From the NCBI GenBank assembly GCA_029560215.1, contig JAKPZB010000078.1:1-48142 (forward strand): a stretch of 48,142 bases of DNA. Reading direction: 5' to 3'. This stretch comes from Methanobacteriota archaeon (GTDB lineage Archaea; Thermoplasmatota; Thermoplasmata; Methanomassiliicoccales; UBA472). The notes under the pieces are model-generated. The model had not been told where the DNA came from. It made no database searches and worked only from the letters and a program-made list of their open reading frames with translations. Positions 4,835 through 30,719 of the stretch are shown in pieces (position 1 is the stretch's first letter; each line of letters opens with the position of its first letter). A program made the translations under genes and the position numbers.

Positions 4835-4835
4835 C

Positions 4836-6482
4836 TCAATCCTCCTTGGGCTTGGACCTTTTGGCCGGGGCCTTCTTGGCAGCGGTCGTCTTCGGCTTCT
4901 TTGGCGCTTCGGCGCCCTCCTTTGGCTTCCCAGCCTTCTTTGCCTTCTTGACCGCGGATTCCTCGGGAGTGGCGCGGCGGATGTAGATGATGTCCTCCTC
5001 GGATATCCCGGACATCATGGCGTCCAGGTCTCCGACGAAACGCCCGAGCAGGTTGGTGCCCGGGATCTCCTCGCCGGTGGGACCGAACTCCTCGCTCTCC
5101 TCCAGGCGTATTCCCATGAGACCGCGCTGCGGTCGGGACATGTTGGTTATCGCCACGTCGCCGCGGACCGAGCGACCTTCGAACGTCCTCTCCGGATAAA
5201 GGTCGGCGGCCAGCTTGGGATTCCCTTCGAAAGTTATCATGGGCATCCCCTCGAAGGTGAAGTGCACCTTCATGGTGCCCACCGGCTTGTGGTCCAAGCC
5301 GGTGACCTTGCGGAAGTAGCGCACCGTCCACGGCGAGGCCTCGGGGTCCATGGTGAGCGGGTACACCTTCTCCCTGGGAACGCCCATGGTCTCGATCTCC
5401 CTCTCCTTGGAGGCGTGGATGGTCATCTCCGGCTCCTGCTCGACGATCACCGCCTCGTCGGAGGTGTCGCCGGTGCGCTTCTGGACCTTGCCAATGGATT
5501 CCAGGAACCTCTGCGCCTCGGCCTGGGTCTTGCCGATGGTCATTATCCTTACGGGGTCCGGCTGAACCAGCACCCTCCCCTTGAGCGGGACCAGATGCAC
5601 CAGGTTGTGGCCGTTGGTGACCTTCCCCACGGTGTTGTGGGAACGGTTCAGCTGGCGGACCTGGTTGTAGAAGTATATCTTCCCGGCCTGGTAGCCCTCG
5701 TGCCTTACGGTCACCGTATCCGGGTGGCGCACCTCGCTGTATTCCTGGCCCAGGGAGGTGTCCATGTTGGCCTCGCTGGCCGAGTAGCTGAAACCCTTCT
5801 CGTCTATCGGCAGGCTGCCCTCGCCGGTGACCACCAGGAAGTGCTCGCAGCAGAGCGGCGAACGCTCGTCCAGCTTCACCCCCACGAAGGTCTCTATGAG
5901 CATGCCGTCCTCCACCGGCACGTTGAGGTCGGTTACCGGGAAGGCGTCCTGGGAGGTCATGCGCAGCACCACCGGCTCGATGTGCTCGATGACATCCCCC
6001 TCGTCGAGAAGGTCCAGGATGTGCCTTCCCCTGGTGACCCGGCCGAACACGGCGTCCTGAAGGCCGAGGTCGTCGCTCATGTCCACCCGGGCGATCATGA
6101 AGTAGGTGGTGTTCACGTCGTAACCGCCCAAGGCGAAGAAGCAATCGTAGCGCTTGTAAGTGGAAGTCCCGCGGGACTTCTCCAGCTGCGTCGGGAAGGA
6201 ACCGAAAGCATGCAGGCGGCTGGTCTGCCAACGCAGATTCCTTCCGACCACGTCGTGATACAGGCGTTTCCAGGCCTCGGCGAAGACGCTCCCGTTCAGT
6301 TCGATGATGAAGCAGCCACGGGGAGTTTTCACCATGTATTCGTTGGTCAGCTTGCGCTGGGCGTCCAGAGGTCGGATCAGGGCCACCGAGCTGCCTGGAA
6401 CATAGGGCTCTCCAACGATGGCCTGGGCCACCGTCGCCCCGTCGGGCAGTACCTTCTCCTTGCCGTTCACGATAGCTCTCAT
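4836..6482 (-). CDS. mmp3: Methanogenesis marker protein 3, with an extra Lys/Ala/Pro-rich C-terminal tail
   Basis: About 548 aa from Met11 of ORF 4836..6512 (MRAIVNGKEKVLPDG..., preceded by GAGGGGG). Length and N-terminus are typical of Mmp3 (UPF0288). First gene of the marker operon. Confidence 0.8.
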   Translation of the reverse strand: MRAIVNGKEKVLPDGATVAQAIVGEPYVPGSSVALIRPLDAQRKLTNEYMVKTPRGCFIIELNGSVFAEAWKRLYHDVVGRNLRWQTSRLHAFGSFPTQLEKSRGTSTYKRYDCFFALGGYDVNTTYFMIARVDMSDDLGLQDAVFGRVTRGRHILDLLDEGDVIEHIEPVVLRMTSQDAFPVTDLNVPVEDGMLIETFVGVKLDERSPLCCEHFLVVTGEGSLPIDEKGFSYSASEANMDTSLGQEYSEVRHPDTVTVRHEGYQAGKIYFYNQVRQLNRSHNTVGKVTNGHNLVHLVPLKGRVLVQPDPVRIMTIGKTQAEAQRFLESIGKVQKRTGDTSDEAVIVEQEPEMTIHASKEREIETMGVPREKVYPLTMDPEASPWTVRYFRKVTGLDHKPVGTMKVHFTFEGMPMITFEGNPKLAADLYPERTFEGRSVRGDVAITNMSRPQRGLMGIRLEESEEFGPTGEEIPGTNLLGRFVGDLDAMMSGISEEDIIYIRRATPEESAVKKAKKAGKPKEGAEAPKKPKTTAAKKAPAKRSKPKED

Positions 6483-6598
6483 CTTGTCCCCCTCATGGAT
6501 GCAGTGCGGCAATTATAAGGTTATTCCCGAGCCGTTCAATCTGGCTATGGCTTTCGACTACCCTTGGCCAAGCACCTCTTCCTTGGGCCGCAGGGGAT

Positions 6599-7805: not shown

Positions 7806-9428
7806 TCAGACCTCGCAGACGTCGGACTCGTCGCCTTCCAGGTCATCCTGGGTCATGCCCTTCAGGACCTCCTGGGGGGTTCCCAGCGCCACCATCTTGC
7901 CGCTCTTCATGAGCGCCACCCGGTCGCAGCAGGCCATTATGAAATCCATGTCATGACTGACGATGAGGAAGGTCTCGTTGAGCTCCTTGCGAGCGTGCAG
8001 TACTGACTTCGCCACGGCCTGACGGGTGATGGGGTCCATGGTGCCGGTCGGTTCGTCGAGAACCACGAAGCGCGGCTCGATGATCATGGTCCTGGCCAAC
8101 ACTATGCGTTGCTTCTCGCCCACGCTCAAGGCGTCCGGGTAGGCGTAGAGGATGCGCTCCACCTCCTTGGCGGTGAAGCCGACCCCGCGCATGACCTGGA
8201 TGGCCTTCATCTTGGCCAGTTCCTGCGGGAGCTTCATCCCCAGGCATACGGTCAGGTTCTGAAGGACGGTGTTGAACGGATAGAGCGCGTTCTCCTGGTG
8301 CATGATACCGATGTACTGGGTGGCGCGGCCTCTGCCCTCCTCTCCCAGATCGGACATGTTCACCCAGTCGTCGCCGATGCGGACAAGAACATCGCCATGT
8401 GTGGCCGGGGTGATGCCGGATATCATCCGGGATAGCGTGGTCTTGCCCGCCCCGCTCAGCCCGATCAGCCCGAATATCTCTTTTTCGTTGACATCGAAGG
8501 TGACGTCGTCCACCGCCTTCACCACGCCGCGGACGATGGAATAGAAGTATTTCTTGGCGCCTTCCACGCGGATGACCGGCTGTCCGACCTGGACGTCCAT
8601 GTCCTTGTCCCTGACGAAAGTGACGTTGAAGGCCTTGGTGACCTCGTGGGGGGCGCCCTCGGCCTTGATCATCCCGTCCTCCAACCAGATGGCCCTCTGG
8701 GAAAGAAGCTCGATGGCCTTGGGCCAGTGGGAGGTGACCACCATGGCCATGCCCGTGTCATTGACCGCTTTGATGAGCGCCTTGTGAACGGTATCCGCGG
8801 TCTCCGGGTCCAGGGTCCCGGTCGGTTCGTCGGCCAGGAACAGCAACGGCTCGCGGGCCAGCTGCCTGGCCAGCACGGTCCTCTGCTTCTCCCCTCCGGA
8901 GAGGTCGCGAGCGATGTGCATGGTGCGGTAGGTCATGTTGACCATCTCCAGCAACTTGATGGCCCGCTCCACCTTCTTCTCGTCGGAATTCTCCCTCATG
9001 GACTCGAAGACGTTCTCGATGACGCTGAGATCGCCGTACAGCGCGAAGGTCCTCTGGAGCATGATGGCTATGCGCCCGCGCATGGCCATCCTAAGGGGGT
9101 TCCGTTCATCCAGGGCCCAGAAGTCGATCTCCACGGTCTTGGTGCCCTTCCCGCACTGCGAGCACTTGGCCCCGGGCGACGGCATGTCTATCCAGCCGCA
9201 GGATTCGCAATGATTTACCCGATAGATGATGCGCCCGGAGTCGGGTTTGTACTCCTTGTTGCCGCGCATGGCATTGATGAGGACGGACTTGCCGCTCCCG
9301 CTCCTGCCGATGAGCCCGAGAACCTCGCCGGTGCGGACGGTGGTGCTGATGTCCTTGAGCACCTGGTGACCATTGAAGCTCTTGGATACCTTGTCCAATA
9401 TGACGAGAACCTCTGAACCCTCGGGCAT
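7806..9428 (-). CDS. atwA: MCR system component A2 (double ABC ATPase)
   Basis: Two ABC cassettes (Walker A GRSGSGKS and GLSGAGKT; signatures LSGGEKQ and LSVGEKQ) and a CxxC...CxxC insert (CESCGW...CSQCG). About 540 aa, adjacent to mcrC. ATG at 9428 preferred over TTG at 9440. Confidence 0.9.
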
Positions 9429-9516
9429 CCTGTTTGCCAACGATTATGGCAGATATAATACTTACCCTGTTTAGAATGCCTGGCTTTAACAATTGGATGG
9501 TGTAAGATATTTATGG

Positions 9517-9533
9517 ATGGATTATATATCCAT
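9517..9533. promoter_or_regulatory. Palindromic operator candidate ATGGAT-TATAT-ATCCAT in the atwA / wHTH-gene divergent intergenic region
   Basis: Sequence ATGGATGGATTATATATCCATCC at 9513-9535. The same 6-N5-6 palindrome is present at 18414-18434 and 39705-39752. Confidence 0.6.
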
Positions 9534-9539
9534 CCCACA

Positions 9540-10502
9540 ATGCCAATGTCCTTCAATTCCTACTTTGCCGGGGGCCCCACGCCAAAGTTCAACGCCTATC
9601 ACATTTGGAAGGCGCATCAGGTGGTGGCCAAGGAAGGCCCCATCGGCCGGAAGGCCTTGGCCGACCTTCTGCAGATCGGTGAAGGCAGCACCCGGACCAT
9701 CCTAGACAAGATGATGCGGGAGGGCTCCATAGAGAGCTCGCGCCTTGGCATAACCATAACCGAGCGCGGCAAGAGGAAGCTGGACAACTCCGGCGTTGAG
9801 GTCAGGCAGATCGACCTGTCCGATCTTACGCTGGGAAAGTACAACTGCGCCGTGCTCATCAAGGGCGCGGCGGAACGGGTGAACCTGGGCTGCGAGCAGC
9901 GGGACGAGGCGGTGCGGGCGGGAGCGATCGGGGCGACCACCCTGGTGGTCCACAATTCTCGGATCGTGTTCCCGGGGGACGAGGAGTTCCCGGACCAATC
10001 GCTGGTGGCCCCTTTGAGGAACTATTTCCGCATGGACGACGGCGACGTGATCATCATCGGCTCCGCCTTCAGCTATGAAGCGGCGGAGAAGGGCGCGGTG
10101 ACCGCCGCCCTTTCGCTCGGGAACCTTTCCCGCCGATGCTGGAACGAGGGCACGAACATCTTGAGCCAGGATACCGAGGCGGACGATCTCCGGTGCCTGG
10201 CCCTGGCCATTCACGAGCTTCTCGGCCGCCTACCGGTCACCATGCGCTCCAAGAACCACCCGGGCGTCCGATGCGAGGATGGCGAGGTCATCGACATTCA
10301 TTTCACCGGGCCCATGTTGGAGGAGTCCATGAAGAAGGGCATGGTCATACGCCGGACATCCACCAGCGGTCCGTACCGCGGATTGCCCATCATCGCCGTC
10401 CCCATCATGCGCAAGAAGGAGGCCATAGCCTCCATCGCCACCATGGACCTGGGGAAGGCCACGCCGTCGGAGCTGCTGAGCCGGTTGGCCGAGCGGTCCT
10501 AG
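9540..10502 (+). CDS. Winged-helix (wHTH) protein with a large C-terminal domain of unknown function; putative transcription regulator
   Basis: N-terminal GPIGRKALADLLQIGEGSTRTILDKMMREG looks like a wHTH recognition unit. My tentative recollection is DUF4443-type N-terminal and DUF2111-type C-terminal regions (unverified). Start moved to ATG 9540 because ATG 9513 lies inside the palindrome. Confidence 0.55.
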   Translation: MPMSFNSYFAGGPTPKFNAYHIWKAHQVVAKEGPIGRKALADLLQIGEGSTRTILDKMMREGSIESSRLGITITERGKRKLDNSGVEVRQIDLSDLTLGKYNCAVLIKGAAERVNLGCEQRDEAVRAGAIGATTLVVHNSRIVFPGDEEFPDQSLVAPLRNYFRMDDGDVIIIGSAFSYEAAEKGAVTAALSLGNLSRRCWNEGTNILSQDTEADDLRCLALAIHELLGRLPVTMRSKNHPGVRCEDGEVIDIHFTGPMLEESMKKGMVIRRTSTSGPYRGLPIIAVPIMRKKEAIASIATMDLGKATPSELLSRLAERS

Positions 10503-12331
10503 AAGTAGTACCAGATGCTGCGGTACCGCTCCGGGTCCTCGCCCCTCTCGGCCAGGGCGGCCAGGAAGTCCGCGATGGGAACGTCGCGGTGCACGTAGGT
10601 GGGGGCCACGGCGATGTTCTTCTCCCAGGGATGAAACTCATAGACCCTTTCGCCCCGGGGGGTCAGTGATATCAGGTCGTGATGCTGCCAGGCGCGCAAG
10701 TGGTTCTTTCCCAGGGCGGGAATGTTGAAGACCGGTTCGTCGGTCCGGCTGAGCCCGGGAAGCAGCCTGGCCTCTTCCTTCCGTTCCTGCAGCAGCCGGG
10801 CGATGGGCACCCGGTACTCGGCCGTCTCCTCCTTACCCTTGGCGTTGAAGGTGTAGTATGGGTCGATCCCGATCTCCTTCAGCGTCGAGCGCAGCGCCAC
10901 CGTCTCGAAGCGCCGGCAGTTCTCCATGGTGAAGACCTGCTGGTTGTACACGGATATGCCCAGTCGGCGCAGGTCGCGGACCGCGGCGGCCGCTTCCGGG
11001 GTGATCTCGTAAGGATGTTCGAAATGGGTGACCAGGGCCAATTCTCGCTTCGGGGGGTCCTGTACCTCCGCCAACCCCTCCAGGAAGCCGTGGTCGATCC
11101 TCATCGGCAGCACCGCCGGCACCCTGGTCCCCAGCCGCAGCCGTTTGATATGGGGAATGGCCGCCAGCCTTTTGAGGAGGCGACGTAACTGAGTGTTCGC
11201 CAGCATGGCGGGGTCCCCTCCGGTGATGAGCACCTCGCTGACCGCCGGATGCTCCTCGAACCACCGCAGCGCCGCCTCGATCTTCTCGGGAGGGGCCATG
11301 GCGTCCTCGGACAGGACGCCTTCGATCTCCCAGTTCCTCTGGCAGTAAACGCAGATCTGGGCGCAGGTGTTGTAAGGTTTGAATATGGCTATCATGGGAT
11401 AGCGCCTGGTAACCAGGTCCACTGGCGAGGTCTGGCCTTCCATCATGAAGTCCAGGCTGGCCGAGGGGTCCGACCTGGACCTGAGGACCGCTCGCACATA
11501 GCTCAGCGGGGGAATGACCTGGGCGCGCACGGCGTGGTCCCATTTCCGCGAGGGCTCCCGGTCCATGAGCGAGAGGTAGTACGGGGTGATGCCGAAGGGG
11601 ATGCGGTTCTCGGAACAGAGGGTTATCGCCTGGCGCTCCTTGTCGGTGAGCTCGATCAGGTCGCCGATCACGTCCGGGGTCAGCATGACATTCCTCATCT
11701 GCCACACATAATCGTTCCAGTCGTCCATGTCGGCGCCCAGGTATTCCGTTATCCGGTTGCGGTTCTCGCGCCGCCTTTGGATCGCCCAAGGTTCCAGTCC
11801 GCTGGGATACCTGACCGTCCATTCGGCCACCGCCCCCGCCATTCCGTCCAGGTAATCCGAGCGCACGCGTCCCCCTTCCTGACCGCCGAGCGCGGTGAAG
11901 TCCGGAGCCTCCTGAAGCTCCAGCACCGGTTCTCCGGTGGTGCCCCTCATGATGTGGATGATGTCCTGTACGAAGGCTTGGCTCGCGCCCTCAAGGGAAC
12001 CCTGGGAGATGTCGAATAGAACCTGGAGAACGGATTCGCCGCTCACTCTCTCGTTTCGGGGAGACAGGAAGTTGCGCATCACCCGGATGCAATGCAGGGA
12101 GTTGGACCGTTCCAGGGCGTGGATGCGGCAATCCCTGGAATGCAACGCGGATTCCCTTTCCCTTAGCAGATCGAACACCGCGGCACGGGCAGACCTTAGG
12201 TCCTCGGCGGGACCCAGCGCGTCATGCAGCTGGGGATCGGTCGCCCATAACACGGTCTGTCCGATATCCTTGTTCTCGCTCCCGCCCTCGGCGGAAGCTT
12301 TCGCTGGGGTTCTCGTGTTGCGCATGACCAT
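10499..12331 (-). CDS. KamA-family (lysine 2,3-aminomutase-like) radical SAM protein with an N-terminal extension of about 200 aa
   Basis: CAQICVYCQRNW (CX3CX2C), flanking ITGGDP and the PYYTFNAKGKEE region typical of KamA-like enzymes. 610 aa versus the roughly 400-450 aa I recall for the family. Confidence 0.7.
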   Translation of the reverse strand: MVMRNTRTPAKASAEGGSENKDIGQTVLWATDPQLHDALGPAEDLRSARAAVFDLLRERESALHSRDCRIHALERSNSLHCIRVMRNFLSPRNERVSGESVLQVLFDISQGSLEGASQAFVQDIIHIMRGTTGEPVLELQEAPDFTALGGQEGGRVRSDYLDGMAGAVAEWTVRYPSGLEPWAIQRRRENRNRITEYLGADMDDWNDYVWQMRNVMLTPDVIGDLIELTDKERQAITLCSENRIPFGITPYYLSLMDREPSRKWDHAVRAQVIPPLSYVRAVLRSRSDPSASLDFMMEGQTSPVDLVTRRYPMIAIFKPYNTCAQICVYCQRNWEIEGVLSEDAMAPPEKIEAALRWFEEHPAVSEVLITGGDPAMLANTQLRRLLKRLAAIPHIKRLRLGTRVPAVLPMRIDHGFLEGLAEVQDPPKRELALVTHFEHPYEITPEAAAAVRDLRRLGISVYNQQVFTMENCRRFETVALRSTLKEIGIDPYYTFNAKGKEETAEYRVPIARLLQERKEEARLLPGLSRTDEPVFNIPALGKNHLRAWQHHDLISLTPRGERVYEFHPWEKNIAVAPTYVHRDVPIADFLAALAERGEDPERYRSIWYYF

Positions 12332-13102: not shown

Positions 13103-13181
13103 GGACCTTGAATCGCCTAGCAGGGATATTAACGATTGCGGAGAAACAACCTTTTTCTAACCACAGGGCATTAGGGTCGGC

Positions 13182-13724
13182 GTGCAACCAGAGGAGAGAG
13201 CGGTCGAGATCATCAAAGGCATGACCGGCACCCGGCTGGCCTTCCTGCTCAGCCCGGAGGTCATCGCGGCTGTCCAGAGGATCGAGGACAGCATCAAGTC
13301 CCAGATAGGCCTGGACGTGGTGAACGAGGGGGTCAACCAGTGCCTCCGCAGGCAGCATGTCATCTGCGTGATCAAGGACACCCGATTCCGCCCTCCGCCC
13401 GAACCGACCGTCCTCATGATGGGCGACACGGACCTGGTCATCGGGACCGAGATCCTTCCCGGAGAGCATTCCCGATACAAGGAGATGGACAACATCTGCT
13501 GGCTGGGCGACGACTTCGTGGTCTTCACGGACAAGGTGCCCAAGTCCAAGGAGTTCTTCCTGATGCCCCCGGTATCGTTCCCGGAGCTGGAACAGGTCCC
13601 CGGAGCCACGAACATAGTGTCCTGCAGCCCTTCCCCGCTGGGGGACATGATCATCAAGAACTACTACGAGCTTGAGGACAACCCGAAGCTGGCCAGCATA
13701 TTGGTCGGCTTCGACCTGTCCTGA
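13182..13724 (+). CDS. Protein I cannot place in a family; paralog of 6599..7201
   Basis: See 6599..7201 for the alignment. Convergent with the end of the mcr operon. GTG start at 13182 or ATG at 13221. Confidence 0.6.
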   Translation: MQPEERAVEIIKGMTGTRLAFLLSPEVIAAVQRIEDSIKSQIGLDVVNEGVNQCLRRQHVICVIKDTRFRPPPEPTVLMMGDTDLVIGTEILPGEHSRYKEMDNICWLGDDFVVFTDKVPKSKEFFLMPPVSFPELEQVPGATNIVSCSPSPLGDMIIKNYYELEDNPKLASILVGFDLS

Positions 13725-14097: not shown

Positions 14098-15762
14098 TTA
14101 CTTGGCGGGGATGATGGCGGTCCTCTCACCCATGGGCACGAACTCCCTGAGGCAGCCGCGACCGAACTCCTTGGTAATGTTCGCGAAGTCGAACGGGAGG
14201 TTCTTGTCGGCGAATGCGATCTTGATCAGGGGGCTGCACACGTAGGCGTCTCCGCGAGCCGCGTGGGGAGCCATGGCGATACCGGCGTATCCGCTCAGGT
14301 GACCCACGTTCATGGCGTAGTTCGGGAAGTTCGGACCGCGCAGCTCGTGCGGCAGACCCTCGTCGCTCCGGTAGGAGAACGAGTTGGACGCACCGCACAT
14401 GTCCTGCAGGTCGTATCCGTAGAACCCGAGCCTTCCGAGCCTCTCACGGTGCTGGTACATGGATAGGTACCAGGCATTGACACCCGCGTTGGCGTTACCA
14501 GTGGCCATGGCCACACCGATGCCGGTGGCGGCCGCAGCGACGGTCGCCCTCTGGGACCCACCGAAGTGGGCTTCCATGGCGGCCGGGTAGCGCTCGTACA
14601 TCTCCAGGGCGTAGGAGTTGATCTCGGACCCGAGCTTCTCGATCAGCTCAGTGGAGGGCTTGCTCTTGCAGAACCCGCCGTACTTGTCCTTGATGTGGTC
14701 CACGGCCCAGTAGGTGTAGTCCTCCAGGATGTCGTCGGTGTAGGCGGCGGTGGCGTACTGAGTGAACCCGACACCTCCGGACATGTAGGATCCGAGGTAT
14801 ATCTGGTCGAACACCACTGCACCCAAAGCGACAGTTTCCAGGGAGGCCCTGGCGGGGTCGTCCGGCTTGGTCCTGGTGCTCTGGACCATATCGGCCAGCA
14901 CACCGAACGGAATTCCACCGGGCTCGTTGGGGCCCCTGGCCCTCCTGGCGGGCATCATGGTACCCATCTCCACCACTGCGGCGTGCTTGGCGGCGAAGGC
15001 GAAGTCGGCGATCGCGGCTTCACCGGCGGCCAGCCGGTACGCGGTGATGAAGGCCATGGAGATCTGCATCGCAGAGTGCCTGGAGATCGTACCACCGTCG
15101 CACACGCGTCCGACGATGGACGGAACACGGACGACCTGCCACAGCTTCTTGCCGACAGCGGCCTTCAGCTGCTTGGCCTGGTCCGCGGGGAACTCCTTGT
15201 TGATGTCAATGACGAAGCACTTGTCGATCTCGTCGATCAGCTCGTCGTCGCCAGAGAACACCTTGACGTAGGAGTCCTTCACGATCTCAGGGCAAAGCTC
15301 GGCCATGTGCTCCTGAACCACTGCGCCGCCTGGCATGGTGTGGTTGACAGCTTCCAGGTAGCGGTTGATGGTCTCGGGGGTGACCTCCTTCGACAGCCTC
15401 TTCTCGATAACGTTGTGCGCGACATCCAGACCGACGATGACGGTCCTGCGGATATCATCCCAGGCCTGCTGCATCGCAGCGTTGTTGACCCAGTGCAGGT
15501 CATCGGCCTCGCCATAGATGTCCGTGTGGGACAGCTGGTAGGGCATCAAGACACGCTGGCCGAGAGCCACACCAATATCCTGGTTCATCATGGGGATCCC
15601 ACGGGCCTTGGCAATCTTGTTGGACTGCTCAACCCACTCCCGCTTCCTCTTCGACTGTCTCCAGCCTCCGTAGGAATAGTGCTTGGAGCGGACCTCCGTG
15701 GGGTCCTCCTTGAACTTCTTCTTCATGGCGGCGATGAACATCTTGTCCTTTTCCTTCGCCAT
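14098..15762 (-). CDS. mcrA: Methyl-coenzyme M reductase alpha subunit
   Basis: 554 aa with hallmark segments [32 protein letters not shown] and [17 protein letters not shown]. The sites corresponding to the modified His, Arg, Gln, Gly, Asp and Cys are all present. Confidence 0.98.
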
Positions 15763-15764
15763 AT

Positions 15765-16547
15765 TTAGTCCTCCTTAACATCGAAGGGCTTGAAGCCGCA
15801 CTTGGTCCTCAAGGTGTGGATCCTGAGGTTCTGCCTCATGACCTCCTCGTCCTCCCTCATGTCCACGCCGTCGGCGCGGAACATGGTGGTGTGCTCCTTC
15901 AACCACTTCTCGGGCATCGGCTTTCCGACCGCGACCGGCTTGTCCAGCGGGACACCGACCTGGTCCTTCACGTACTCGACCTCGCCCTTCTTCGCGTTCC
16001 ACCGGAACCTCTGCCAGGCGTCGAACATCATTCCGTTCTCGTCCAGCCTGACGGCGTGTCCGTGCACGGTCGCGCCTCTGATACCGGTTCTGGCGGTATC
16101 GAAGGTCTCGCCATCGATGAGTTCCTTGGCCACCTTTTCGACGTCCCTCTCCCTCATCTCGATGATCTGCCTTCCGGACAGGGTACCAGTGTCAATTCCC
16201 CGGTATCTGCACATGTACATCTGCGCCCTCACATACGGGACGATGGGGGCCCAGTACACGGAGTCAGTGAACTGAACGTACCTGATCCTGTCTCCCTTCT
16301 TCGCACCCTCCATGGGCTCGACCAAGGCCCGGATCGGGCAGTCGGGCTCGTTACCCTCGGCCAGCGGCGCGTGGATGGTGGCGTAGTCGGAACCGGGGAC
16401 ACGGTGTCCCAGGATCTTGACCACATCGTCCATCGGAATGTCGCGCAGCTTCTCCAGCTTGACGCTGGAGTCCATGAAGCGTCTGCGGTTCTTGGCGGGC
16501 AGGGTGTTGCCAGGATAGAGTTGTGCCTTGTACTTTGTCTTAGCCAT
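15765..16547 (-). CDS. mcrG: Methyl-coenzyme M reductase gamma subunit
   Basis: 260 aa. [21 protein letters not shown]...[19 protein letters not shown] is typical of McrG. Confidence 0.95.
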
Positions 16548-16548
16548 G

Positions 16549-16971
16549 TTATTTCACCAATCCTTTATTGTAGTCTGTAGTAGTTGGCTTGAACTTGTTG
16601 TAGCGACCTACCTCCAGAGTGAAACTGAAGGGTAGCACTTCCTTGCATACCTCCTCGATGTCCTTGAGAGCCTGGGGCACAAAGTCGATGTCGGCGATCT
16701 CGACGAAAACCCGACCGACCTGTATCTTAAGCTCTATGTCCTCCCCTCTGACCTTGATCTTCCTTCGTTCCGGATGGTTTACCGGACCGCCAGTGCCCGG
16801 ACCGGCCTTGATGACTGCGGGCAGGCCCTCGCCCTGGATGTTGATCTGCCTGACGTTCTTCACGGCGTACAGCTTGTTCAGCAGCACCTCCGTGGTGGAA
16901 GCCATCAGCAACCTCTCGGGGAATATCTGGATCTCGGGTAGGGGGACTCCCTCGAAGGCAGGCGTACTCAT
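16549..16971 (-). CDS. mcrD: MCR operon protein D
   Basis: 140 aa between mcrB and mcrG. IFPERLL...LLNKL...GEGLP...[18 protein letters not shown]...[14 protein letters not shown] matches McrD. Confidence 0.9.
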
Positions 16972-16973
16972 GT

Positions 16974-18302
16974 TCAGACCAGCTCCTTCAGTTTCTTGGC
17001 CTCCTTGCCTACCATCTTCATCGGGCTCTTGAACTCCGGGATCTCGCCGAAGATCTCCTTGAACACCAGGGAGGTGTTCTCAGCGCTGAAGTACTGGGTA
17101 CCAGCATCCAGAGCGCATCCGGCGGCGATGACGGGGATTACAGTGCCCTTCGCATGCCTAGTAACCACGTGGTTCCCGTGGAACAGTCCCGGACCGCCAC
17201 CACCATAGATGGAGTGGCTGAAGAAGGACATACCGACGGAAGTACCCATGGCCCTGCCGTAGTCTACACCGGGCAGGCTGGTCTCGTGCTCGATCAGGTC
17301 GTTGTAGTACAGAATGGTGGACGGAACACCCTGAGCGGCCCTTGCGGCGCCGATGTTCACGCAGATCGCGGCCAGCATACCAGCGGACACGTACGCGTTC
17401 CACAGCGGGAAGTCGTTGGTGGTGTACTCAACGAATCCGGAGGGGAACTTCTTTCCCTTCTTGATGACCTTGTCCTCTAAGGCCCTGCCGACAACGGAGG
17501 CAACGACGTCACCGACGGTGCCGGTCTTGCCGTTCTCCTTGACCCAGCTGTAGACCATGTTGTTGGCGTTCAGGCCCTGATAGGCCAGGGACAACAGGTG
17601 CTGCCTCTCGAAGTTGCCGATCGCGTCGCCCATCTCGTAGGCGGCGGCGGTCTCGTAGATAGAGGAGAGAGCGGCGGCGTTCATGGCGTTCCTGCCAGTC
17701 AGCATGACTAGGTGGTTGGCCATGATGTTCCTGAGGGCGTATCCAGTACCCTCGTTCAACTGCGGTACATCGAGAATGGTCTTAAGGTTGGACCCTTGCA
17801 TGTTGATGGTCTGCGGGTATCTGCCCCAGACGGCGGCCTTGACCATGGAAGCTTCGAACATGTTCACGTTGAACTGGTCGATGATTGCCTCGGTCACGGC
17901 GGCGGCAACGGTGGTGAACCCAGTGGTGTACTCGGCACCGGCGTCCATCCTGACGGACGGAACGGTGACGATCATCCTCTTGCCGTCAGCCATCGTCTCG
18001 ATCTTGGAGTCGTCGTCCTTGGCGGCCTTGACGATGTCAGCGATCCTCTTCTTCAACTTATCAGCGTTCGCCACGATAGCGAGGTCCAGGCTCCTGCCGG
18101 GAACATTCAATCCGCCAACCGCTCCGGTCTTGAGACCCTTCTCAATACCTTCGAGGTTGACAGCGATCGTTCTCTTCGTCAGAGAGATGGTTCGCTTAAT
18201 GGCGGCGTTGTTTAACGGACTCAATGCGTCGAGAGGCACGTCCTTTTCAATCAATTTGCCTCTGTCGTCATACAAGTCCACCTTGTCCTTGTATTTTGCC
18301 AT
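16974..18302 (-). CDS. mcrB: Methyl-coenzyme M reductase beta subunit
   Basis: 442 aa. N-terminus [30 protein letters not shown]. Strong Shine-Dalgarno element (GGAGGT) upstream. First gene of mcrBDGA. Confidence 0.95.
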
Positions 18303-18576
18303 TTTTTACCTCCTTTCAATAGCTCGGTCCCCTCAAGCAGACTTACATCAATCCTGAGAAAACCGGTACCCCTTGCGAACTCGACAATGTATAGTTAGAA
18401 TATAAGCTTGATGATGGATGGATAATCCATCCATATTAAACAATAGCTTAATTTTTGTCGCATCCCAGACAAAAATCGTTAAGTTTTAACGTCCTAAAAT
18501 TTTTTAATATTTTTATATTATAATATAATAGCCGCTTCGATTTTTAATTTATTTTCAACGAATGTTATAATAATAT
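18303..18576 (-). promoter_or_regulatory. mcr operon promoter and leader region
   Basis: A 274-bp very AT-rich spacer between tfuA and mcrB with several TATA-like boxes (for example TTATATT at about 18398-18404 on the minus strand, and TATAATATAATA at about 18510-18530) and the palindrome at 18414-18434. Confidence 0.6.
18414..18434. promoter_or_regulatory. Perfect 21-bp palindrome ATGGATGGAT-A-ATCCATCCAT (two overlapping ATGGAT-N5-ATCCAT units)
   Basis: Read directly from the sequence. Lies 112-132 nt upstream of the mcrB ATG. Confidence 0.65.
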
Positions 18577-19218
18577 TTATCGTTGTTCGCAAACGCCCTT
18601 AATGAATTTGAGGACGGTTATCGCGTCCTCCTTTTTAATATCTCGGTAATTCTCCGCAAAAAATCGGTCGAATGACTCGGCATTTTTATCGCCTACGATC
18701 CGTCGGGCCACCTCGCGGAACGCGGTCACCGTCCGGCGGGGATAGTAGATCGCGCGCATCTCGTTCATTATCCCGGCCCTCTGCTCGGCGTCGATGACGT
18801 CGGCCATCCACGCCTGGTCCAAAAGGATCCGCAGGTTCACCAGCGGTTCGGACAGCGGCTCCATGGTCTCCGGGTCGAACACCAACGCTACCTCGTCATC
18901 CCCCTGGACCTCGCCGTTGGCGTACATCCTGAAGATGTGTCCCACTCCGGTCATACCATAATGTCCCATCTCGGCCGCGCGCAGCGCGCCCATGCTCCCC
19001 CCGCCGATGACCTTCACCTTGCGGTTCAGGAGCGAAAGGATCTCCCGGTGCCCGACCGAGCAGCTCTGCAGGAAAACGCCGTCGATGATGCCGACCACCT
19101 CCACGCCTTCCAGATGCAGCAGGTCCCCCCTCTTCACCGGAGGACGGAAATCCGCGTCGAGCACTTCCCTGGCCTCGGACAGGGGAAGGCTCGGACCAAG
19201 GAACACCACCGGCCTCAT
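18577..19218 (-). CDS. tfuA: TfuA-like protein (partner of YcaO for McrA thioglycine formation)
   Basis: 213 aa. VFLGPSL...PPVKRGDL...VGIIDGVF...SVGHREIL...VIGGGSMGALRAAE is typical of TfuA. 4-nt overlap with ycaO. Confidence 0.9.
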   Translation of the reverse strand: MRPVVFLGPSLPLSEAREVLDADFRPPVKRGDLLHLEGVEVVGIIDGVFLQSCSVGHREILSLLNRKVKVIGGGSMGALRAAEMGHYGMTGVGHIFRMYANGEVQGDDEVALVFDPETMEPLSEPLVNLRILLDQAWMADVIDAEQRAGIMNEMRAIYYPRRTVTAFREVARRIVGDKNAESFDRFFAENYRDIKKEDAITVLKFIKGVCEQR

Positions 19219-20450: not shown

Positions 20451-20933
20451 TCAATCCCGGTGCCCCTCGCTCTCCGCCAACGGCACGGCGAGATCGAACA
20501 CGGCGTCCTCGTTGATCGGAATCCGCTCGATCAGGATGTCCACCTCCACCCGTTGCACATTGGGTATGTTGACGATCTTGTCCTGGATGAGATCGTAGAG
20601 ATTGTCCACGCTGCTGGAGTAGACCTCGCAGATCAGGGAATGGTCCCCGAACACCTTGTGCGCGTACTGGATGCCCGGGAACTTTTTCAGTTCGTCGATC
20701 ACCGCGCTCAGCGGCGAACCGACCACCTGCAGCCCGATAAGGGCGCGCATGAGGCCCAGCTTCCCGGTGTTCACCTGCATGGTGTAGGCGTTGACGTAAC
20801 CTTCCTCCTCCAGACGGGAGATTCGTCTGCTTACCGTGGCCTTGGACACCCCGAGCTTATCCCCGATGGTCCCCAGGTTCTCCCGGGCGTTCTTCCTCAG
20901 CATCCTGAGTATCTCTAGGTCGATGAGGTCCAT
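20451..20933 (-). CDS. Lrp/AsnC-family transcriptional regulator
   Basis: DLIDLEILRMLRKNARENLGTIGDKLGVSKATVSRRISRLEEEGYV (HTH) followed by a C-terminal RAM-like domain. ATG at 20933 preferred over TTG at 20948. Confidence 0.85.
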   Translation of the reverse strand: MDLIDLEILRMLRKNARENLGTIGDKLGVSKATVSRRISRLEEEGYVNAYTMQVNTGKLGLMRALIGLQVVGSPLSAVIDELKKFPGIQYAHKVFGDHSLICEVYSSSVDNLYDLIQDKIVNIPNVQRVEVDILIERIPINEDAVFDLAVPLAESEGHRD

Positions 20934-20943
20934 GGTTAAACCC

Positions 20944-20958
20944 TGCAATTTTATTGCA
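20944..20958. promoter_or_regulatory. Inverted repeat TGCAAT-TTT-ATTGCA just upstream of the Lrp-family gene
   Basis: Perfect 6-3-6 palindrome 11-25 nt upstream of the ATG. Possible autoregulatory site. Confidence 0.35.
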
Positions 20959-24189: not shown

Positions 24190-24963
24190 ATGGCAATGGC
24201 GGAAACGGACACGTGGCCAATGGCCAGCGGTGATTATGTCCTAGGGGACGAAGCTTCGCCGGTGGCGGTGCTCATAGTCGGCCGGGGAGCGGTGGAGGTC
24301 CCGCCGGAGCTTTACCGCATCAAGGGCATCCTGAAGACGGAGAACATCGGACTGGAGAGGGTGGTCGCCAACATCATCTCCAACCCCCGGATCCGGGTGC
24401 TGGTCATCTGCGGCAAGGAGGAGTTCGGGCACTTCCCAGGAGCGGCCATCCACGCGCTGATGGAGAACGGAGTGGACGAGCACAGGCGCATTCGGAACAC
24501 CCGATCGGCCATCCCGTTCCTGTGCGACCTGCCGTTGGAGGCGGTGGAACGCTTCCGCCAGCAGGTGGAGCTGGTGGATATCATGGACGACACGCCGGCG
24601 CAGGAGATCGCCGCCTACGACCCTATATATGAGTTCGAGGCGGAGAGCCGGGACCGGCTGGAGAACAAATTGAGGGAACTGGCCGGAAGGACCTTCGAGC
24701 CGTTTCCCGGAGAGGCCATGTTCGTTCGTTCCAAGGCCTTCGCCGGGGAGGGCGTAAGCGTGGCCAAACAGCTCCATCTGGCCTCGGACGATTTCATCAC
24801 GCCGATGCTCCGCCTTCCCTCGGACGGGCTGAACACCGACATGGGAATGGTCCTGCTGGACCAGGAGTTCGGCGTGGTGCTCGAGCCCTTGCAGGGCAGG
24901 ATCATCACCGTGCCGTCCGTAGAACTGGCCATGAGATTGCGTTCGTATCTAACGGGGTTCTGA
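24190..24963 (+). CDS. Soluble MtrA-like (MtxA-like) corrinoid protein
   Basis: WPMASGDYVLGDEASPVAVLIV...GILKTENIGLERVVANIISNPRIRVLVICGKEEFGHFPGAAIHALMENGVD...AIPFL matches the MtrA cobamide-binding domain, including the conserved His. There is no C-terminal hydrophobic anchor. Confidence 0.8.
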   Translation: MAMAETDTWPMASGDYVLGDEASPVAVLIVGRGAVEVPPELYRIKGILKTENIGLERVVANIISNPRIRVLVICGKEEFGHFPGAAIHALMENGVDEHRRIRNTRSAIPFLCDLPLEAVERFRQQVELVDIMDDTPAQEIAAYDPIYEFEAESRDRLENKLRELAGRTFEPFPGEAMFVRSKAFAGEGVSVAKQLHLASDDFITPMLRLPSDGLNTDMGMVLLDQEFGVVLEPLQGRIITVPSVELAMRLRSYLTGF

Positions 24964-24964
24964 C

Positions 24965-25849
24965 ATGTACAAGTTCCAAACCGCGCAGCGGGAGATCGAG
25001 ATCGGCGGGGTCAAGGTCGGAGGACAACCGGGAAAGAGGCGGACCATGCTGGTCGGTTCGCTCTTCTACCCGAGGCATTCGGTGGTGCTCGATCCCCGCA
25101 AGGGTGAGCTGGACCGGGCGAAGCTGAACGAGAGGCTGGACAGCTATCTGAACACCATCGAGAGATGCGGCTGCCCCTCCGGCCTGATGCTCTACGCCGA
25201 AAGCTGCGAGTCCGCCCGGGCCTACCTGGAGGCGGTGTGCGACAAGGTCCCCGGACCGCTGTTCGCCGATTCCGGCAGCGCCGAGGTAAGGCTCTCCTTC
25301 CTCCGCAGCGCCCAGGAGATGGGCGTCCTGGACCGGGTGGTCTACAACACCATCAACGCCGGCCTTTCCGAGGAGGAGACCCAAGCGCTGAGGGAATGCC
25401 CGCCGGTGAACGCGGTGGTCCTGGCCTTCAATCCCCGGGGGGACGACGTCAAGGGAAGGATCTACATGCTGGAGAGCGGGGACGATCTGATCCCCCAGGG
25501 ACTGGTCCCGGCGGCGGAGGAGCTGGGGATACGGAACCTGCTCATCGACACCGCGGTGACCTCGCCGGACCTCAGCGCCGGGTCGGCCCTGCGTTCCATC
25601 CTGGTGGCCAAAGCGAAGTGGGGGATCCCCACGGGATGCGCCCTCCACAACGCGGTGGAATGCCTGAGGCTGGATGGGTTGGAAGATCCCAAGGAGGCCC
25701 GGCGCAGCGTGGACGCCTCAGCGGTGGCCATCAGCATCATGTCCGGGGCGGACTACGTGGTCTACGGTCCCTTGGAGTACGCCAAGCGGACCATGCCCGT
25801 GGCGTCCTTCACCGACAAGATGATGGAGCAGGCGGCCCGGGACCTATAG
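24965..25849 (+). CDS. MtrH-like (MtxH-like) methyl-pterin:corrinoid methyltransferase
   Basis: N-terminus YKFQTAQREIEIGGVKVGGQPGKRRTMLVGSLFY and ...LLIDTAVTS... resemble MtrH. Starts 1 nt after the mtrA-like stop. Confidence 0.8.
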   Translation: MYKFQTAQREIEIGGVKVGGQPGKRRTMLVGSLFYPRHSVVLDPRKGELDRAKLNERLDSYLNTIERCGCPSGLMLYAESCESARAYLEAVCDKVPGPLFADSGSAEVRLSFLRSAQEMGVLDRVVYNTINAGLSEEETQALRECPPVNAVVLAFNPRGDDVKGRIYMLESGDDLIPQGLVPAAEELGIRNLLIDTAVTSPDLSAGSALRSILVAKAKWGIPTGCALHNAVECLRLDGLEDPKEARRSVDASAVAISIMSGADYVVYGPLEYAKRTMPVASFTDKMMEQAARDL

Positions 25850-26689: not shown

Positions 26690-28339
26690 CTACGCGTCCT
26701 CTCCCTTCTTGACGATCTTCAACGCGCTGAAGTTGTAGACGCTCTCCGGGCAGACGGCCTGGCAGTTCTTGCAGGCCGTGCCGAGGCAATGCTCGGTGTT
26801 GACGCGGATGAGGAACTTCTTGTCCCCCATGGCAGTGACCTGCAGGGCGCACTCGGGGCATTCCTTCTGGCACTTCTTGCAGCCTATGCAGCCCTCGAAG
26901 GAGCCCATGAGATATACGCCAACATCGTCCAGGGTCCTCAGGCCGCGAGCGCCGATGACCGGGATATCCGAGAGCACCAGACGGATGGTCTCCTTCGGGC
27001 GTACGATGTCCGGGAGCGGGCGCAGCCCGGCGTGCCTGACCATCTCGTTGTACATTTCCATGGACATGCCCTCGGTCCAGTAGGCAATCTCGTTGACGTA
27101 GATGTCCTCGAACACCTTGCTGGTGGCGAACATGATGTGCTTGCTGGATATCGCGTTCGCCACATCCTGCATCTTGTCCAGGCCGTCGTCGTCCACCAGG
27201 ATGTCGTAGGACATCATCAGGGAGGTGTTGCCGGCCTGCACGGTCTTCTCCAGGACCCGGGGGATGAGGCCCACGGTCTGGGCCTTGATCGGATCGACGT
27301 AGGTTCCGGAAGCGCCGGCCATGTACATGGTCCTGATATCCGTGTCGTCCACGCCGACCTCCTCGATCAGGGTGCGGTGCCCGGCGCGGATGGCTCCGAT
27401 GGCCTTTCCCGCCTCGCGCACGTCCTCCTCGCCGAAGTAGATGCCGTTGGTGAGGTGTATCTTCCGGTCGGGGGTGTTTACGTACGGCAGCTTTATCACG
27501 CCGGTCTCCAGCCCGATGGCCATGGCGGCCACGGTGCCGGTGCCGGTTATTCCCCGGGCGACCACGCCGTCCAGGCGCTGCTCCTCTCCAGTGCTGGGGT
27601 CCACCAGGGCCGATCTGACCGGGTGCAGCTTGTCGTTGAGAACGATGTTGTACCATCTTCCGTTCTCTCCGAGCACGATGTCGGATATGGCCTGTGGAGC
27701 GGCCAGCATGCCGAAGTCGATGGACTGCCCCTCCATGGCCGGTCCGGCGGCGGCGGAGCCGGTGTACAGCTCGCCCTTGTAGAACAGGCCCATCTCAGCG
27801 TTGGTGCCGTAATCGGTCACCATGCAGGTCTCCTTCTTGTCCATCAGCCCGGTCTTCATGATCATGGCCAGGGCGTCCGCGCCTATCTCATGGCGGATGG
27901 ACGGAGGGATGCGGACCTCGGCGGTGCGCTTGACCGAGCTCATTCCCAGCTCCTCGGCCTTTAGGGAGTGGGCCTTGCGCTCGGGGACCTTGACGTTGAG
28001 CCTCTTAAGTATGGACTGGCCGGCGAAGGCCAGGTCGCGGATCTCGATCTTCTCGAACATGGACATCTGGGCCGGGTTCCCGCATACCGACACGCGCTCG
28101 ATCTCCTCGGCCTTGGCGCCCATGGTGGCGATCAGCTTGTCGACCGTCTCGATGACAATGCGGTGCCCCACGTCCGCGCCGTTCTCCATCCAGAAATGAA
28201 GATGGTCCATGATGTTGGCCCCGGGAAGCGGGTGCCTCATGGTTATGGCCGTAGCCAGGATCTTGCCTTTCTTGTCCAGATCTACCAGGTGCCCCCGGTA
28301 ACCGCTAGTTCCTAAATCCAGCGCGACTCCCAATGCCAT
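26690..28339 (-). CDS. ramA: RamA-type corrinoid protein reductive activase (ASKHA ATPase plus 2x[4Fe-4S] ferredoxin domain)
   Basis: ALGVALDLGTSGYRGHLVD at the N-terminus, and C-terminal CIGCKKCQKECP and CLGTACKNCQAVCP. ATG at 28339 with a GAGGT Shine-Dalgarno element is preferred over 28396. Confidence 0.85.
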   Translation of the reverse strand: MALGVALDLGTSGYRGHLVDLDKKGKILATAITMRHPLPGANIMDHLHFWMENGADVGHRIVIETVDKLIATMGAKAEEIERVSVCGNPAQMSMFEKIEIRDLAFAGQSILKRLNVKVPERKAHSLKAEELGMSSVKRTAEVRIPPSIRHEIGADALAMIMKTGLMDKKETCMVTDYGTNAEMGLFYKGELYTGSAAAGPAMEGQSIDFGMLAAPQAISDIVLGENGRWYNIVLNDKLHPVRSALVDPSTGEEQRLDGVVARGITGTGTVAAMAIGLETGVIKLPYVNTPDRKIHLTNGIYFGEEDVREAGKAIGAIRAGHRTLIEEVGVDDTDIRTMYMAGASGTYVDPIKAQTVGLIPRVLEKTVQAGNTSLMMSYDILVDDDGLDKMQDVANAISSKHIMFATSKVFEDIYVNEIAYWTEGMSMEMYNEMVRHAGLRPLPDIVRPKETIRLVLSDIPVIGARGLRTLDDVGVYLMGSFEGCIGCKKCQKECPECALQVTAMGDKKFLIRVNTEHCLGTACKNCQAVCPESVYNFSALKIVKKGEDA

Positions 28340-28507
28340 GGATAACCTCGAGGGGAGGAATGCCATCGTCGGATTTATAATACTGTTCCCCTTCATCCCC
28401 CCGTCAGAAAGGTAGGCCAGCCTGCGGCCATGGTGGCGTTTATCGCGCCCCGCTCCGGGACAACGGAATTATACCTGAAAGGCCCTTAACGGCGCTAGTG
28501 TGATTAC

Positions 28508-29669: not shown

Positions 29670-30719
29670 ATGTTCCCGCGTGAAAGGTTCGAGGCAGCTT
29701 TTGAGAAAGCCCCCGCCGACCGACCGCCAATCATGTATCAACATCTCGGGGCGGCGAGGACCGTTCTTAACGCCGCCGGGCTCACCATGCGGGAGGGCTT
29801 CCACGACCCGGAGAAGTTCGCCAAGATATGCATCATGGCCCAGCGCATCACCGGCTTCGACAACGTGATGGCCGGATGGGGGGACATTCTGGTCGAAGCG
29901 AGGGCGCACGGCACCCGGTGGAGGTGGCCGGAGAAGGACTATTACCCGAGGTCGGACGGCTACGCCATATCGTCCCTGGCCGAACTGGACAAGGTCCAGC
30001 CCGTCGATCCCATGAAGGATGAGTTCTGGTCCGTTCCCCTTCGGGCCGCGGGGCTGCTTCAGGAACGCCACGGCAACGAGGTGGCGGTGGTCGGCTGCAT
30101 CAACGGGCCGATGATGATGAGCGGGGAGATCATGGGTTACGAAAATTTGCTGATGTCCACCTGGTCCGAGCCCGACCTGGCCTCTCAGCTCATGGACCGC
30201 ATGCTGGAGTCGTCGCGGATGTACGGCGAACACCTCTCAAGGATGGGGATCGGCCACGTGTTCATCGAGGATGGCACCTGCTCGCCGGACGTGAACTCCA
30301 TAGAGGGACTGCGGAAGTTCGATCTTGGGTATCTGTCCAAGCTAATGGCCTCCTTCCGTTCAAACGGAATAAGGTCCATCGTTCACAATTGCGCGGTCAA
30401 TCCCTATACAGATGGTTACCTGGAGATGACCATCGAGGCACTGCATCTCACCCCCAAGGCCGATGACCGCAAGGCGGCCTACGACAGATTCCGCTCCCGG
30501 ACTACGGTGATTGGAGGAATAGACCAGACCTTCCTGCTCTTCAAGGGCACCCCTGCGCAGGTGGAGGCCGAGGTCCGGGGAATGATGAACGATTGGGGCG
30601 ATGCTCCGGGCTTCATGATCGCCCCGGGATGCGAGATGCCCTTCAAGACCCCGATCGAGAACATCATCGCCCTTAGAGAGGCTGCTGCAAGATGCTACTC
30701 CGGGTCGGGCAATGGTTGA
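29670..30719 (+). CDS. URO-D-family methyltransferase (MtaA/MtbA/CmuA-like), divergent member
   Basis: 349 aa. N-terminal RERFEAAFEKAPADRPPIM, putative Zn ligands in VHNCAV (HxC) and APGCEMP. Confidence 0.7.
   Translation: MFPRERFEAAFEKAPADRPPIMYQHLGAARTVLNAAGLTMREGFHDPEKFAKICIMAQRITGFDNVMAGWGDILVEARAHGTRWRWPEKDYYPRSDGYAISSLAELDKVQPVDPMKDEFWSVPLRAAGLLQERHGNEVAVVGCINGPMMMSGEIMGYENLLMSTWSEPDLASQLMDRMLESSRMYGEHLSRMGIGHVFIEDGTCSPDVNSIEGLRKFDLGYLSKLMASFRSNGIRSIVHNCAVNPYTDGYLEMTIEALHLTPKADDRKAAYDRFRSRTTVIGGIDQTFLLFKGTPAQVEAEVRGMMNDWGDAPGFMIAPGCEMPFKTPIENIIALREAAARCYSGSGNG

Follow-up and report, generated by a model that had tools for sequence, protein, structure and literature searches.

We identified a perfect 21-bp palindrome upstream of mcrB in the stretch of 48,142 nt analyzed here (the window), and we regard it, with moderate confidence, as the operator of a transcription factor controlling methanogenesis, the likeliest factor being the protein with winged-helix, DUF4443, and DUF2111 domains encoded at 9540-10502. 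The predicted regulon comprises mcrBDGA, several corrinoid/methyltransferase operons, and the factor's own gene.

The window represents a methanogenesis island, in which mcrC and mmp genes together with atwA (component A2; 7806-9428, minus strand; TIGR03269, 739 bits) are followed by the gene at 9540-10502, mcrAGDB, tfuA, ycaO, and a gene for an Lrp/AsnC regulator, the remainder harboring MtrA/MtrH-like genes, RamA, two MtaA-like genes, and a corrinoid-protein gene. The presumed regulated target, the mcrBDGA operon (14098-18302, minus strand), was assigned based on the Pfam domains MCR_beta and MCR_beta_N for mcrB (16974-18302) and on ORF size and order for mcrD (16549-16971), mcrG (15765-16547), and mcrA (14098-15762), all on the minus strand; sizes and order agree with the called genes in loci L125-L128. 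The same-strand gene upstream of mcrB is tfuA, itself preceded by ycaO. The gene at 9540-10502 is located between the mcr operon and the divergent atwA-mmp-mcrC operon for MCR activation. The ATP-driven MCR activation complex consists of McrC, Mmp7, Mmp17, Mmp3, A2, and DUF2098 (PMC12176620). An ORF of 454 aa in the window (36657-38021) revealed no match in Pfam, NCBIfam, or the PDB.

The palindrome is located at 18414-18434, 112 nt away from the start of mcrB, and reads ATGGATGGAT-A-ATCCATCCAT, i.e., ATGGATGGATAATCCATCCAT. A sequence-only reading that preceded this analysis had described it as a perfect palindrome composed of two operator units shifted against each other by 4 bp, and on both counts this description held: the two 10-nt arms are 100% complementary about one central A (10+1+10), and exact ATGGAT-N5-ATCCAT units are found at 18414-18430 and 18418-18434, offset by 4 bp, which also fits the cross-genome data given below. 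The half-site lies within a repeat of the tetranucleotide GGAT, which makes two overlapping registers available. The minus-strand TTATATT, placed in the same reading at about 18398-18404, is present as well, one base further on at 18399-18405. As for the symmetry, perfect palindromes (arm length 10 nt or more, loop length 5 nt or less) were found in 62 of 200 first-order Markov versions of the window (31%), so that symmetry alone is not significant and was dropped as evidence. Significance rests on this particular motif, not on its palindromic symmetry. With up to three mismatches, the 21-mer occurs at four places in the window versus none expected, namely at 18414 (mcrB), 9513 (the gene at 9540), and 39701 and 39732 (the corrinoid-protein gene). 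The 17-bp unit ATGGAT-N5-ATCCAT has five exact copies in the window, all at these four places, each of which carries at least one; at up to two mismatches, there are 10 matches versus 2.1 expected. No comparable site was detected at any other promoter in the 48-kb window, the sites being confined to three promoter regions.

Downstream of the palindrome, the minus strand reads CATCAAGC, then TTATATT. The predicted core promoter of mcrBDGA (18399-18412, minus strand), composed of this TATA box (18399-18405) and a BRE-like ATCAAGC (18406-18412), was delimited by an ungapped alignment in which CAAGCTTATAT is conserved and keeps a fixed distance to the palindrome, with the last C of the operator's proximal CCATCC 10 nt ahead of TTATAT. 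A near-invariant GCAAGGGG (18369-18376, minus strand) follows about 26 nt downstream of the TATA center; it is replaced by GCAAGGCG in loci L026 and L028 and would coincide with the predicted transcription start or come just after it. Further downstream, covariation revealed a stem-loop of 13 base pairs in the 5' leader RNA of mcrB (18325-18365, minus strand), with 93% of cells paired versus 42-56% in slid controls and compensatory changes in 10 of the 13 pairs. This covariation supports a transcription start between the TATA box and the hairpin. Since conservation turns RNA-type downstream of the TATA box, the operator is placed upstream of the core promoter and not deep in the 5' UTR; we infer a position of about -60 to -40, directly upstream of the BRE.

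A scan for McrB with one genome per species returned 42 loci, and conservation was analyzed in 28 distinct mcrB promoters of Methanomassiliicoccales (McrB 61-95% identical). GGATGG-N5-CCATCC, the conserved core of the mcrB operator, or a variant of it with one mismatch was found in every Methanomassiliicoccales locus with sufficient upstream sequence, except L041, at about 120-170 nt ahead of the mcrB ATG, while the mcrB loci of other methanogen orders in the 42-locus scan had no such site. In a site-anchored ungapped alignment, the arms GGATGG and CCATCC were near-invariant (8-9 of 9 on the information scale for the 28 promoters) and the center was variable (2-5), with CAAGCTTATAT following at a constant distance. 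The comparison of the mcrB leader in related genomes therefore shows the palindrome to be conserved in Methanomassiliicoccales apart from L041. It also bears out the BRE-proximal placement proposed in the sequence-only reading, in that the distance between palindrome and TATA box is constant in the 28 promoters and RNA-type conservation begins only downstream. That the palindrome is a candidate control element, as likewise proposed there, gained in weight, since the motif is found again at other methanogenesis genes and upstream of a syntenic gene for a DNA-binding protein.

The second predicted target is the gene for an MtaC-like corrinoid protein (39003-39638, minus strand; Pfam B12-binding and B12-binding_2), whose start codon was read off the sequence. 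Its promoter-proximal predicted operator (39701-39721), ATGGATGTCTCATCCATCCAT in gene orientation, ends 7 nt ahead of the TATA box TTTATTA (39687-39693) and has conserved counterparts upstream of orthologous as well as paralogous corrinoid genes. A distal predicted operator (39732-39752), GTGGATGGATTATTCATCCAT, recurs in L043 and L044, the closest orthologous loci. Among the 80 loci obtained in a metagenome scan with the corrinoid protein, GGATGG-N5-CCATCC with at most one mismatch was located 80-180 nt upstream of roughly 30 corrinoid genes, including paralogues of 43-53% identity that are followed by URO-D-type methyltransferase genes, and almost no matches were found in these loci away from the upstream regions of corrinoid genes. 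Altogether, the site is present at 31 of 88 corrinoid genes; the mtmCB promoter of locus L126 is without it. The common promoter layout is ...ATCCATCC, N9-12, TTTAWWA, i.e., the spacing of 9-12 nt between site and TATA box at corrinoid genes compares with 10 nt (to TTATAT) at mcrB.

To assess specificity, we pooled 130 loci, window included, amounting to 1.24 Mb. Exact TGGAT-N5-ATCCA matched 104 times in this sequence, where about one match is expected by chance, and 103 of these matches were located within 260 nt upstream of mcrB, corrinoid-protein, or regulator genes: 42 belonged to mcrB (33 loci), 35 to corrinoid genes (31 loci), and 26 to genes of the 9540 type, leaving one elsewhere. Alignment of all classes revealed TGGAT-N5-ATCCA as the unit common to them and TGGAT-N6-TCCATCC(A) as the universal core. 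While the mcrB site superposes two registers 4 bp apart, the sites at corrinoid genes mainly consist of the distal unit TGGAT-N5-ATCCA and a proximal TCC(A). A reading of the site in the regulator promoter as GGATGG-N9-CCATCC, with a spacing incompatible with the N5 at mcrB, was given up, as the alignment showed one shared TGGAT-N5-ATCCA. Five mcrB promoters keep GGATGG-N5-CCATCC and have one or two mismatches in both registers of the other dyad, and the recognized unit is therefore ambiguous between TGGAT-N5-ATCCA and GGATGG-N5-CCATCC. In the former, the half-site centers are 10 bp apart, and its size suits a dimeric winged-helix protein.

The gene at 9540-10502 (plus strand) encodes a candidate regulator of 320 aa with an N-terminal winged helix (PH0730-like_N, of the CggR_N type) followed by DUF4443 and DUF2111 (PF22167, PF14544, and PF09884). 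Its nearest solved structure is that of PH0730 (2p8t), an uncharacterized protein homologous over the wHTH and DUF4443 part (E = 1.5e-13); the only other sequence relative with a solved structure is a weak match, the SorC-family regulator 2o0m. The AlphaFold model (mean pLDDT 82) likewise matched PH0730 best, its overall fold resembling IclR-type and GAF-containing proteins (winged helix plus GAF-like domains), and Foldseek superposed its winged helix on the operator-bound DNA-binding domain of CggR (7oyk) with an rmsd of 0.9 A. GEGSTRT, the recognition helix, shows no variation among 34 homologues and is largely retained in more distant ones, which makes a different motif in distant three-domain homologues unlikely. 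Judged from the Pfam domains, the fold match of the model, and this invariant helix, the product is a DNA-binding protein. 

The regulator gene also carries the site in its own promoter. The predicted operator (9513-9535), ATGGATGGAT-TATAT-ATCCATCC, has a TATA-like ATATTTAT (9506-9513) before it and, behind it, the ATG at 9540, a start codon with which those of the homologues agree. The site was found at 26 of 28 regulator-gene starts, always between TATA and ATG, and this arrangement is kept down to 53% protein identity, with TTTAAA, ATATTTAT, or TTTATA as TATA-like sequences and the ATG 3-7 nt past the dyad. It looks like the geometry of a leaderless, autorepressed gene. Furthermore, synteny of the gene with mcr extends to more than 25 loci, again down to 53% identity, and the order mcrC-mmp-atwA, regulator gene, mcrAGDB-tfuA-ycaO is retained in distant lineages. 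The three-domain architecture is rare, amounting to about ten clusters across 1.84 billion representative proteins, while wHTH and DUF4443 commonly occur together in two-domain proteins of about 200 aa, and DUF2111 commonly stands alone in proteins of about 100-135 aa. In a locus of another methanogen lineage (L030), a stand-alone DUF2111 gene (Pfam E = 3e-33) is located between mmp6 and mmp5, upstream of mmp15-mmp17-mmp7-mmp3-mcrB; in the window, mmp6 and mmp5 are adjacent, with no DUF2111 gene between them. 

A different factor might bind the operators of this same regulon, either the Lrp/AsnC protein encoded at 20451-20948, acting in a Ptr2-like manner, or one encoded elsewhere, the DUF2111 gene being only a member of the regulon. 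We consider this unlikely, though of the alternatives it fares best. The Lrp gene, upstream of ycaO-tfuA-mcrB, itself keeps synteny with mcr, in about 32 loci, Lrp boxes are typically dyads of 15 bp with 5 bp at the center, and stand-alone DUF2111 is a non-DNA-binding protein of the mmp cluster. However, the protein at 9540-10502 contains a bona fide winged helix in addition to DUF2111, and its gene has the dyad in the position described above, whereas the promoter of the Lrp gene has no GGAT dyad. Instead, the latter displays GAAACAWWGT-type boxes resembling a second conserved motif of the mcrB promoter, CTATTGTTTA (CWATYGTTWA; 18437-18446, minus strand), 2 nt upstream of the palindrome, so that Lrp may bind this second motif rather than the palindrome. 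CWATYGTTWA is conserved in mcrB promoters and has four copies in the window (9486, 13129, 18437, and 39769) versus 0.13 expected, three of which adjoin GGAT sites. In addition, locus L128 keeps both GGAT sites, but no Lrp gene was called in the approximately 3 kb covered upstream of its mcrB. An ArsR-like gene (38076-38899) was also considered as the regulator and rejected: its own promoter follows a T-rich stretch and has no GGAT site, and it adjoins arsenic-type transporters.

If the protein encoded at 9540-10502 is the factor, it would be a sequence-specific, dimeric or tetrameric protein recognizing a 15-17-bp dyad, (A)TGGAT-N5-ATCCA(T). Archaeal factors bound just upstream of the BRE usually help to recruit TFB and TBP, and based on this, activation is predicted at the mcrB and corrinoid promoters, where the factor would bind just upstream of the BRE and recruit TFB/TBP. 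At its own promoter, it would sit between the TATA box and the start codon and block RNA polymerase, resulting in autorepression. The DUF4443 and DUF2111 domains probably receive a signal, and since DUF2111 otherwise occurs as a stand-alone protein of the mmp cluster, this signal may have to do with the maturation or the activity of MCR. A broader proposal, which we put forward only tentatively, is that of a master regulator of methyl-reducing methanogenesis: a PH0730-type wHTH/DUF4443 protein fused with the DUF2111 of the mmp cluster (mmp5/6/15) could couple transcription of mcr, of corrinoid-methyltransferase genes, and of its own gene to the state of MCR assembly or activation or to a metabolite linked with that state.

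The same factor at the same site could also act as a repressor at mcrB, abutting the BRE, hindering TFB/TBP, and throttling mcr without its signal. The sequence-only reading had named repressors as an option as well, most characterized archaeal regulators are repressors, and with its proximal arm about 10 nt before the TATA box and about 3-4 nt from the presumed BRE, the footprint could reach the latter. At the target promoters, however, the site never overlaps the TATA box or the start site, and the strict distance between site and TATA box in two unrelated promoter classes suggests protein-protein contact over simple occlusion. The one promoter at which repression is expected, that of the factor itself, has the site in another position, downstream of the TATA box. 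Very high expression is moreover required of the target genes. We therefore judge repression at mcrB to be improbable, somewhat more so than binding by another factor, and keep activation as the preferred reading.

A role of the palindrome as a nucleic-acid hairpin, be it a terminator or processing signal of the tfuA transcript or a cruciform, is very improbable. It is located 143 nt downstream of the tfuA stop codon and, in single-stranded DNA, folds as a 9-bp stem of -8.1 kcal/mol (z = -3.5 versus shuffles). Among the 28 mcrB promoters, though, no compensatory changes occurred in the arms, and the rare arm changes, found in L012, L025, and L125, are one-sided and uncompensated, which argues for base-specific recognition by a protein and against a hairpin; that the adjacent leader hairpin does covary shows that the covariation test has power. 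Moreover, no T-run follows the palindrome, a sigma-70/terminator scan, which is not relevant to archaeal promoters, places no terminator there, and the same sequence, not just the same structure, recurs where there is no same-strand upstream gene, and between TATA and ATG. An Rfam scan of 18200-18700 revealed only a sub-threshold, meaningless match to RsaJ. Finally, a functionless chance palindrome in an AT-rich intergenic region, for which the simulated frequency given above may speak, is refuted for practical purposes by conservation across the order, phasing with the TATA box, and the concentration of the unit matches in three promoter classes.

The closest known systems include the Thermococcales glycolytic motif TGM of TrmBL1/Tgr (TATCAC-N5-GTGATA) and the SurR site (GTTn3AAC), and Kanai in 2007, Lee in 2008, and Lipscomb in 2009 reportedly worked on the position-dependent regulation by TrmBL1/Tgr, TGM, and SurR. 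Shared with TGM is a 6-N5-6 dyad common to many promoters of one pathway, and shared with both TrmBL1/Tgr and SurR is the rule, predicted here, that binding upstream of BRE/TATA activates and binding downstream of the TATA box represses. In contrast to TGM, the motif of this study is ATGGAT-N5-ATCCAT, with a half-site that is a tetranucleotide repeat giving two overlapping registers, the lineage is Methanomassiliicoccales, the predicted regulon consists of mcr and corrinoid methyltransferase genes, and the candidate factor has no TrmB family domains. Unlike TrmB or the ArsR-like SurR, it combines a PH0730-like winged helix with DUF4443 and DUF2111. Ptr2, an Lrp-family protein of Methanocaldococcus jannaschii, and TFB-RF1 of Pyrococcus furiosus have palindromic or defined sites directly upstream of BRE/TATA and recruit TBP or TFB from there, the mechanism that, by analogy, we propose for the mcrB site; yet the candidate factor does not belong to the Lrp family, and the promoter of the nearby Lrp gene is without the dyad. 

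With Bacillus CggR of the CggR/SorC group, the candidate factor shares the type of N-terminal winged helix, but it carries DUF4443 and DUF2111 and gave no match to the SorC sugar-phosphate-binding domain, and the CggR operator consists of direct repeats, whereas the site described here is an inverted repeat. For PH0730, we know of no function or site. In Methanosarcina, the Msr proteins (MsrA-G) are said to regulate the mtaCB methanol methyltransferase operons, as reported by Bose and Metcalf in 2008, and thus resemble the candidate in acting on corrinoid methyltransferase genes of methylotrophic methanogenesis and in having their genes near the targets. Being composed of an ArsR-type HTH and DUF1724, they belong to another protein family than the candidate factor, and to our knowledge, they are not known to control mcr, and we know of no motif in common. 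NrpR of Methanococcus maripaludis likewise recognizes a short GGA-type dyad (GGAA-N6-TTCC) that serves as operator throughout a regulon of a methanogen; its action is confined to repression from sites downstream of the TATA box of nitrogen genes, and spacing, sequence, and factor family differ. In its action, the element would thus resemble operators of the TGM type or upstream activating sites of the Ptr2 type while belonging to neither family, and within archaeal palindromic operators its novelty would lie in the uncharacterized factor family and the unusual half-site with overlapping registers.

The mcr operon is usually treated as constitutive, and we know of no dedicated mcr regulator described so far; a literature search for the motif, for functions of DUF2111 or DUF4443, and for an mcr regulator in Methanomassiliicoccales found no description. 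If true, the proposal would provide the first transcriptional activator dedicated to mcr to be described in any methanogen. For methane control in Methanomassiliicoccales, which include methylamine-consuming methanogens of the human gut, the rumen, and wetlands, the analysis defines a cis element precisely, names a candidate factor, and predicts a regulon. It would also provide a first functional context for the PH0730-like wHTH, DUF4443, and DUF2111, tying the latter to the MCR maturation cluster, and the operator, BRE/TATA, and structured leader may serve as a compact, portable promoter module for genetic tools.

L041 and L123 deviate from the common pattern. The mcrB promoter of L041 displays a different palindrome, TGGTGATAATCACCA, beside its TATA box, and this locus contains neither a second copy of TGGTGATAATCACCA nor a regulator gene; its mcrB is apparently frameshifted in the assembly. 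In L123, the regulator homologue is located away from mcr and lacks the site at its own promoter, and a variant dyad, TGGGAT-N5-ATCCCA, is found before the TATA box of a neighboring corrinoid operon.

The 5' leader of mcrB, the first gene of the mcr operon, harbored a conserved element (18325-18376, minus strand) consisting of a near-invariant start and a stem-loop. The leader opens with GCAAGGGG, which is replaced by GCAAGGCG in L026 and L028, two of the loci from related genomes used for comparison, and is followed by a stem-loop of 13 bp displaying strong covariation. Paired cells accounted for 93% of this stem compared to 42-56% in slid controls, and compensatory changes were detected at 10 of the 13 pairs, while a search against Rfam resulted in no match. 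This element may control how stable the mcr mRNA is or how it is translated.

Apart from the GGAT dyad (TGGAT-N5-ATCCA), a second motif, CWATYGTTWA, was found in four copies in the window (9486-9495, 13129-13138, 18437-18446, and 39769-39778), with 0.13 expected. Three of these are adjoined by GGAT operators, and the remaining one is located 44 nt upstream of an unannotated gene encoding 180 aa (13182-13724, plus strand), which is syntenic with mcrA. Since related GAAACAWWGT boxes were identified upstream of the Lrp/AsnC gene (20451-20948), which is syntenic as well, in its promoter in about 30 loci, CWATYGTTWA may represent the Lrp site.

In L041, which has the only Methanomassiliicoccaceae mcrB promoter lacking the GGAT dyad, a different perfect palindrome, TGGTGAT-A-ATCACCA (9835-9849), was detected 2 nt from the TATA box; no gene for the winged-helix regulator, the candidate binder of the dyad, was found in this 21-kb locus, and its mcrB displayed apparent frameshifts in the assembly. 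L123 harbored a regulator homolog (P0119, 51% identical) away from mcr and a variant dyad, GTGGGAT-GGCTT-ATCCCAC (about 16230-16260), 9-10 nt upstream of a TTTATTA box and preceding a corrinoid/URO-D operon (B12-binding gene 15520-16182). This variant may point to a shifted specificity. Within the window, the sole other palindrome with 10-nt arms, CACCGGCTTG-TGGTC-CAAGCCGGTG (5280-5304), falls within the coding region of mmp3 (4836-6512).

In methanogens of other lineages, DUF2111 makes up a stand-alone protein with a length of about 127 aa (L030 4723-5106; L034 about 4817-5110). Its gene in L030 is flanked by mmp6 and mmp5, in an mmp cluster directly upstream of mcrB, while in the window the gap between mmp6 and mmp5 contains no DUF2111, which instead forms a fusion with the winged-helix regulator. 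The mcr island also encodes, convergently to the regulator gene, a KamA-family radical SAM protein of 610 aa (10499-12331, minus strand; TIGR00238, 318 bits). This protein is extended by about 190 aa at its N terminus and may be a further MCR modification enzyme.

Adjacent MtrA-like and MtrH-like genes (24190-25849, plus strand) were identified close to RamA (26690-28396) and two MtaA-like genes (29670-31909), none of which revealed a GGAT dyad at their promoters in the window. To our knowledge, the Mtr complex is absent from the order of the host. A hydantoinase/oxoprolinase-like ATPase of 650-735 aa (34639-36660, minus strand; also in L048, L051, L053, and L115) was repeatedly found close to corrinoid-protein genes in several lineages, in L051 and L053 also close to MtaA-like genes, and may be an unrecognized accessory protein or activase of the corrinoid system.

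Finally, an ArsR-type regulator/transporter cluster (31930-38899, minus strand) includes an ArsP-type permease and an SBF-family transporter (Pfam PF01758). The regulator (38076-38899) has its own promoter and two Cys-rich motifs, CEMRPEC and CDGC. Next to it lies a polytopic membrane protein of 454 aa (36657-38021) with no matches in Pfam, NCBIfam, or PDB, and the permease and the transporter follow. L043 was found to encode this membrane protein as well as the ArsR-like regulator, and L048 the regulator only.
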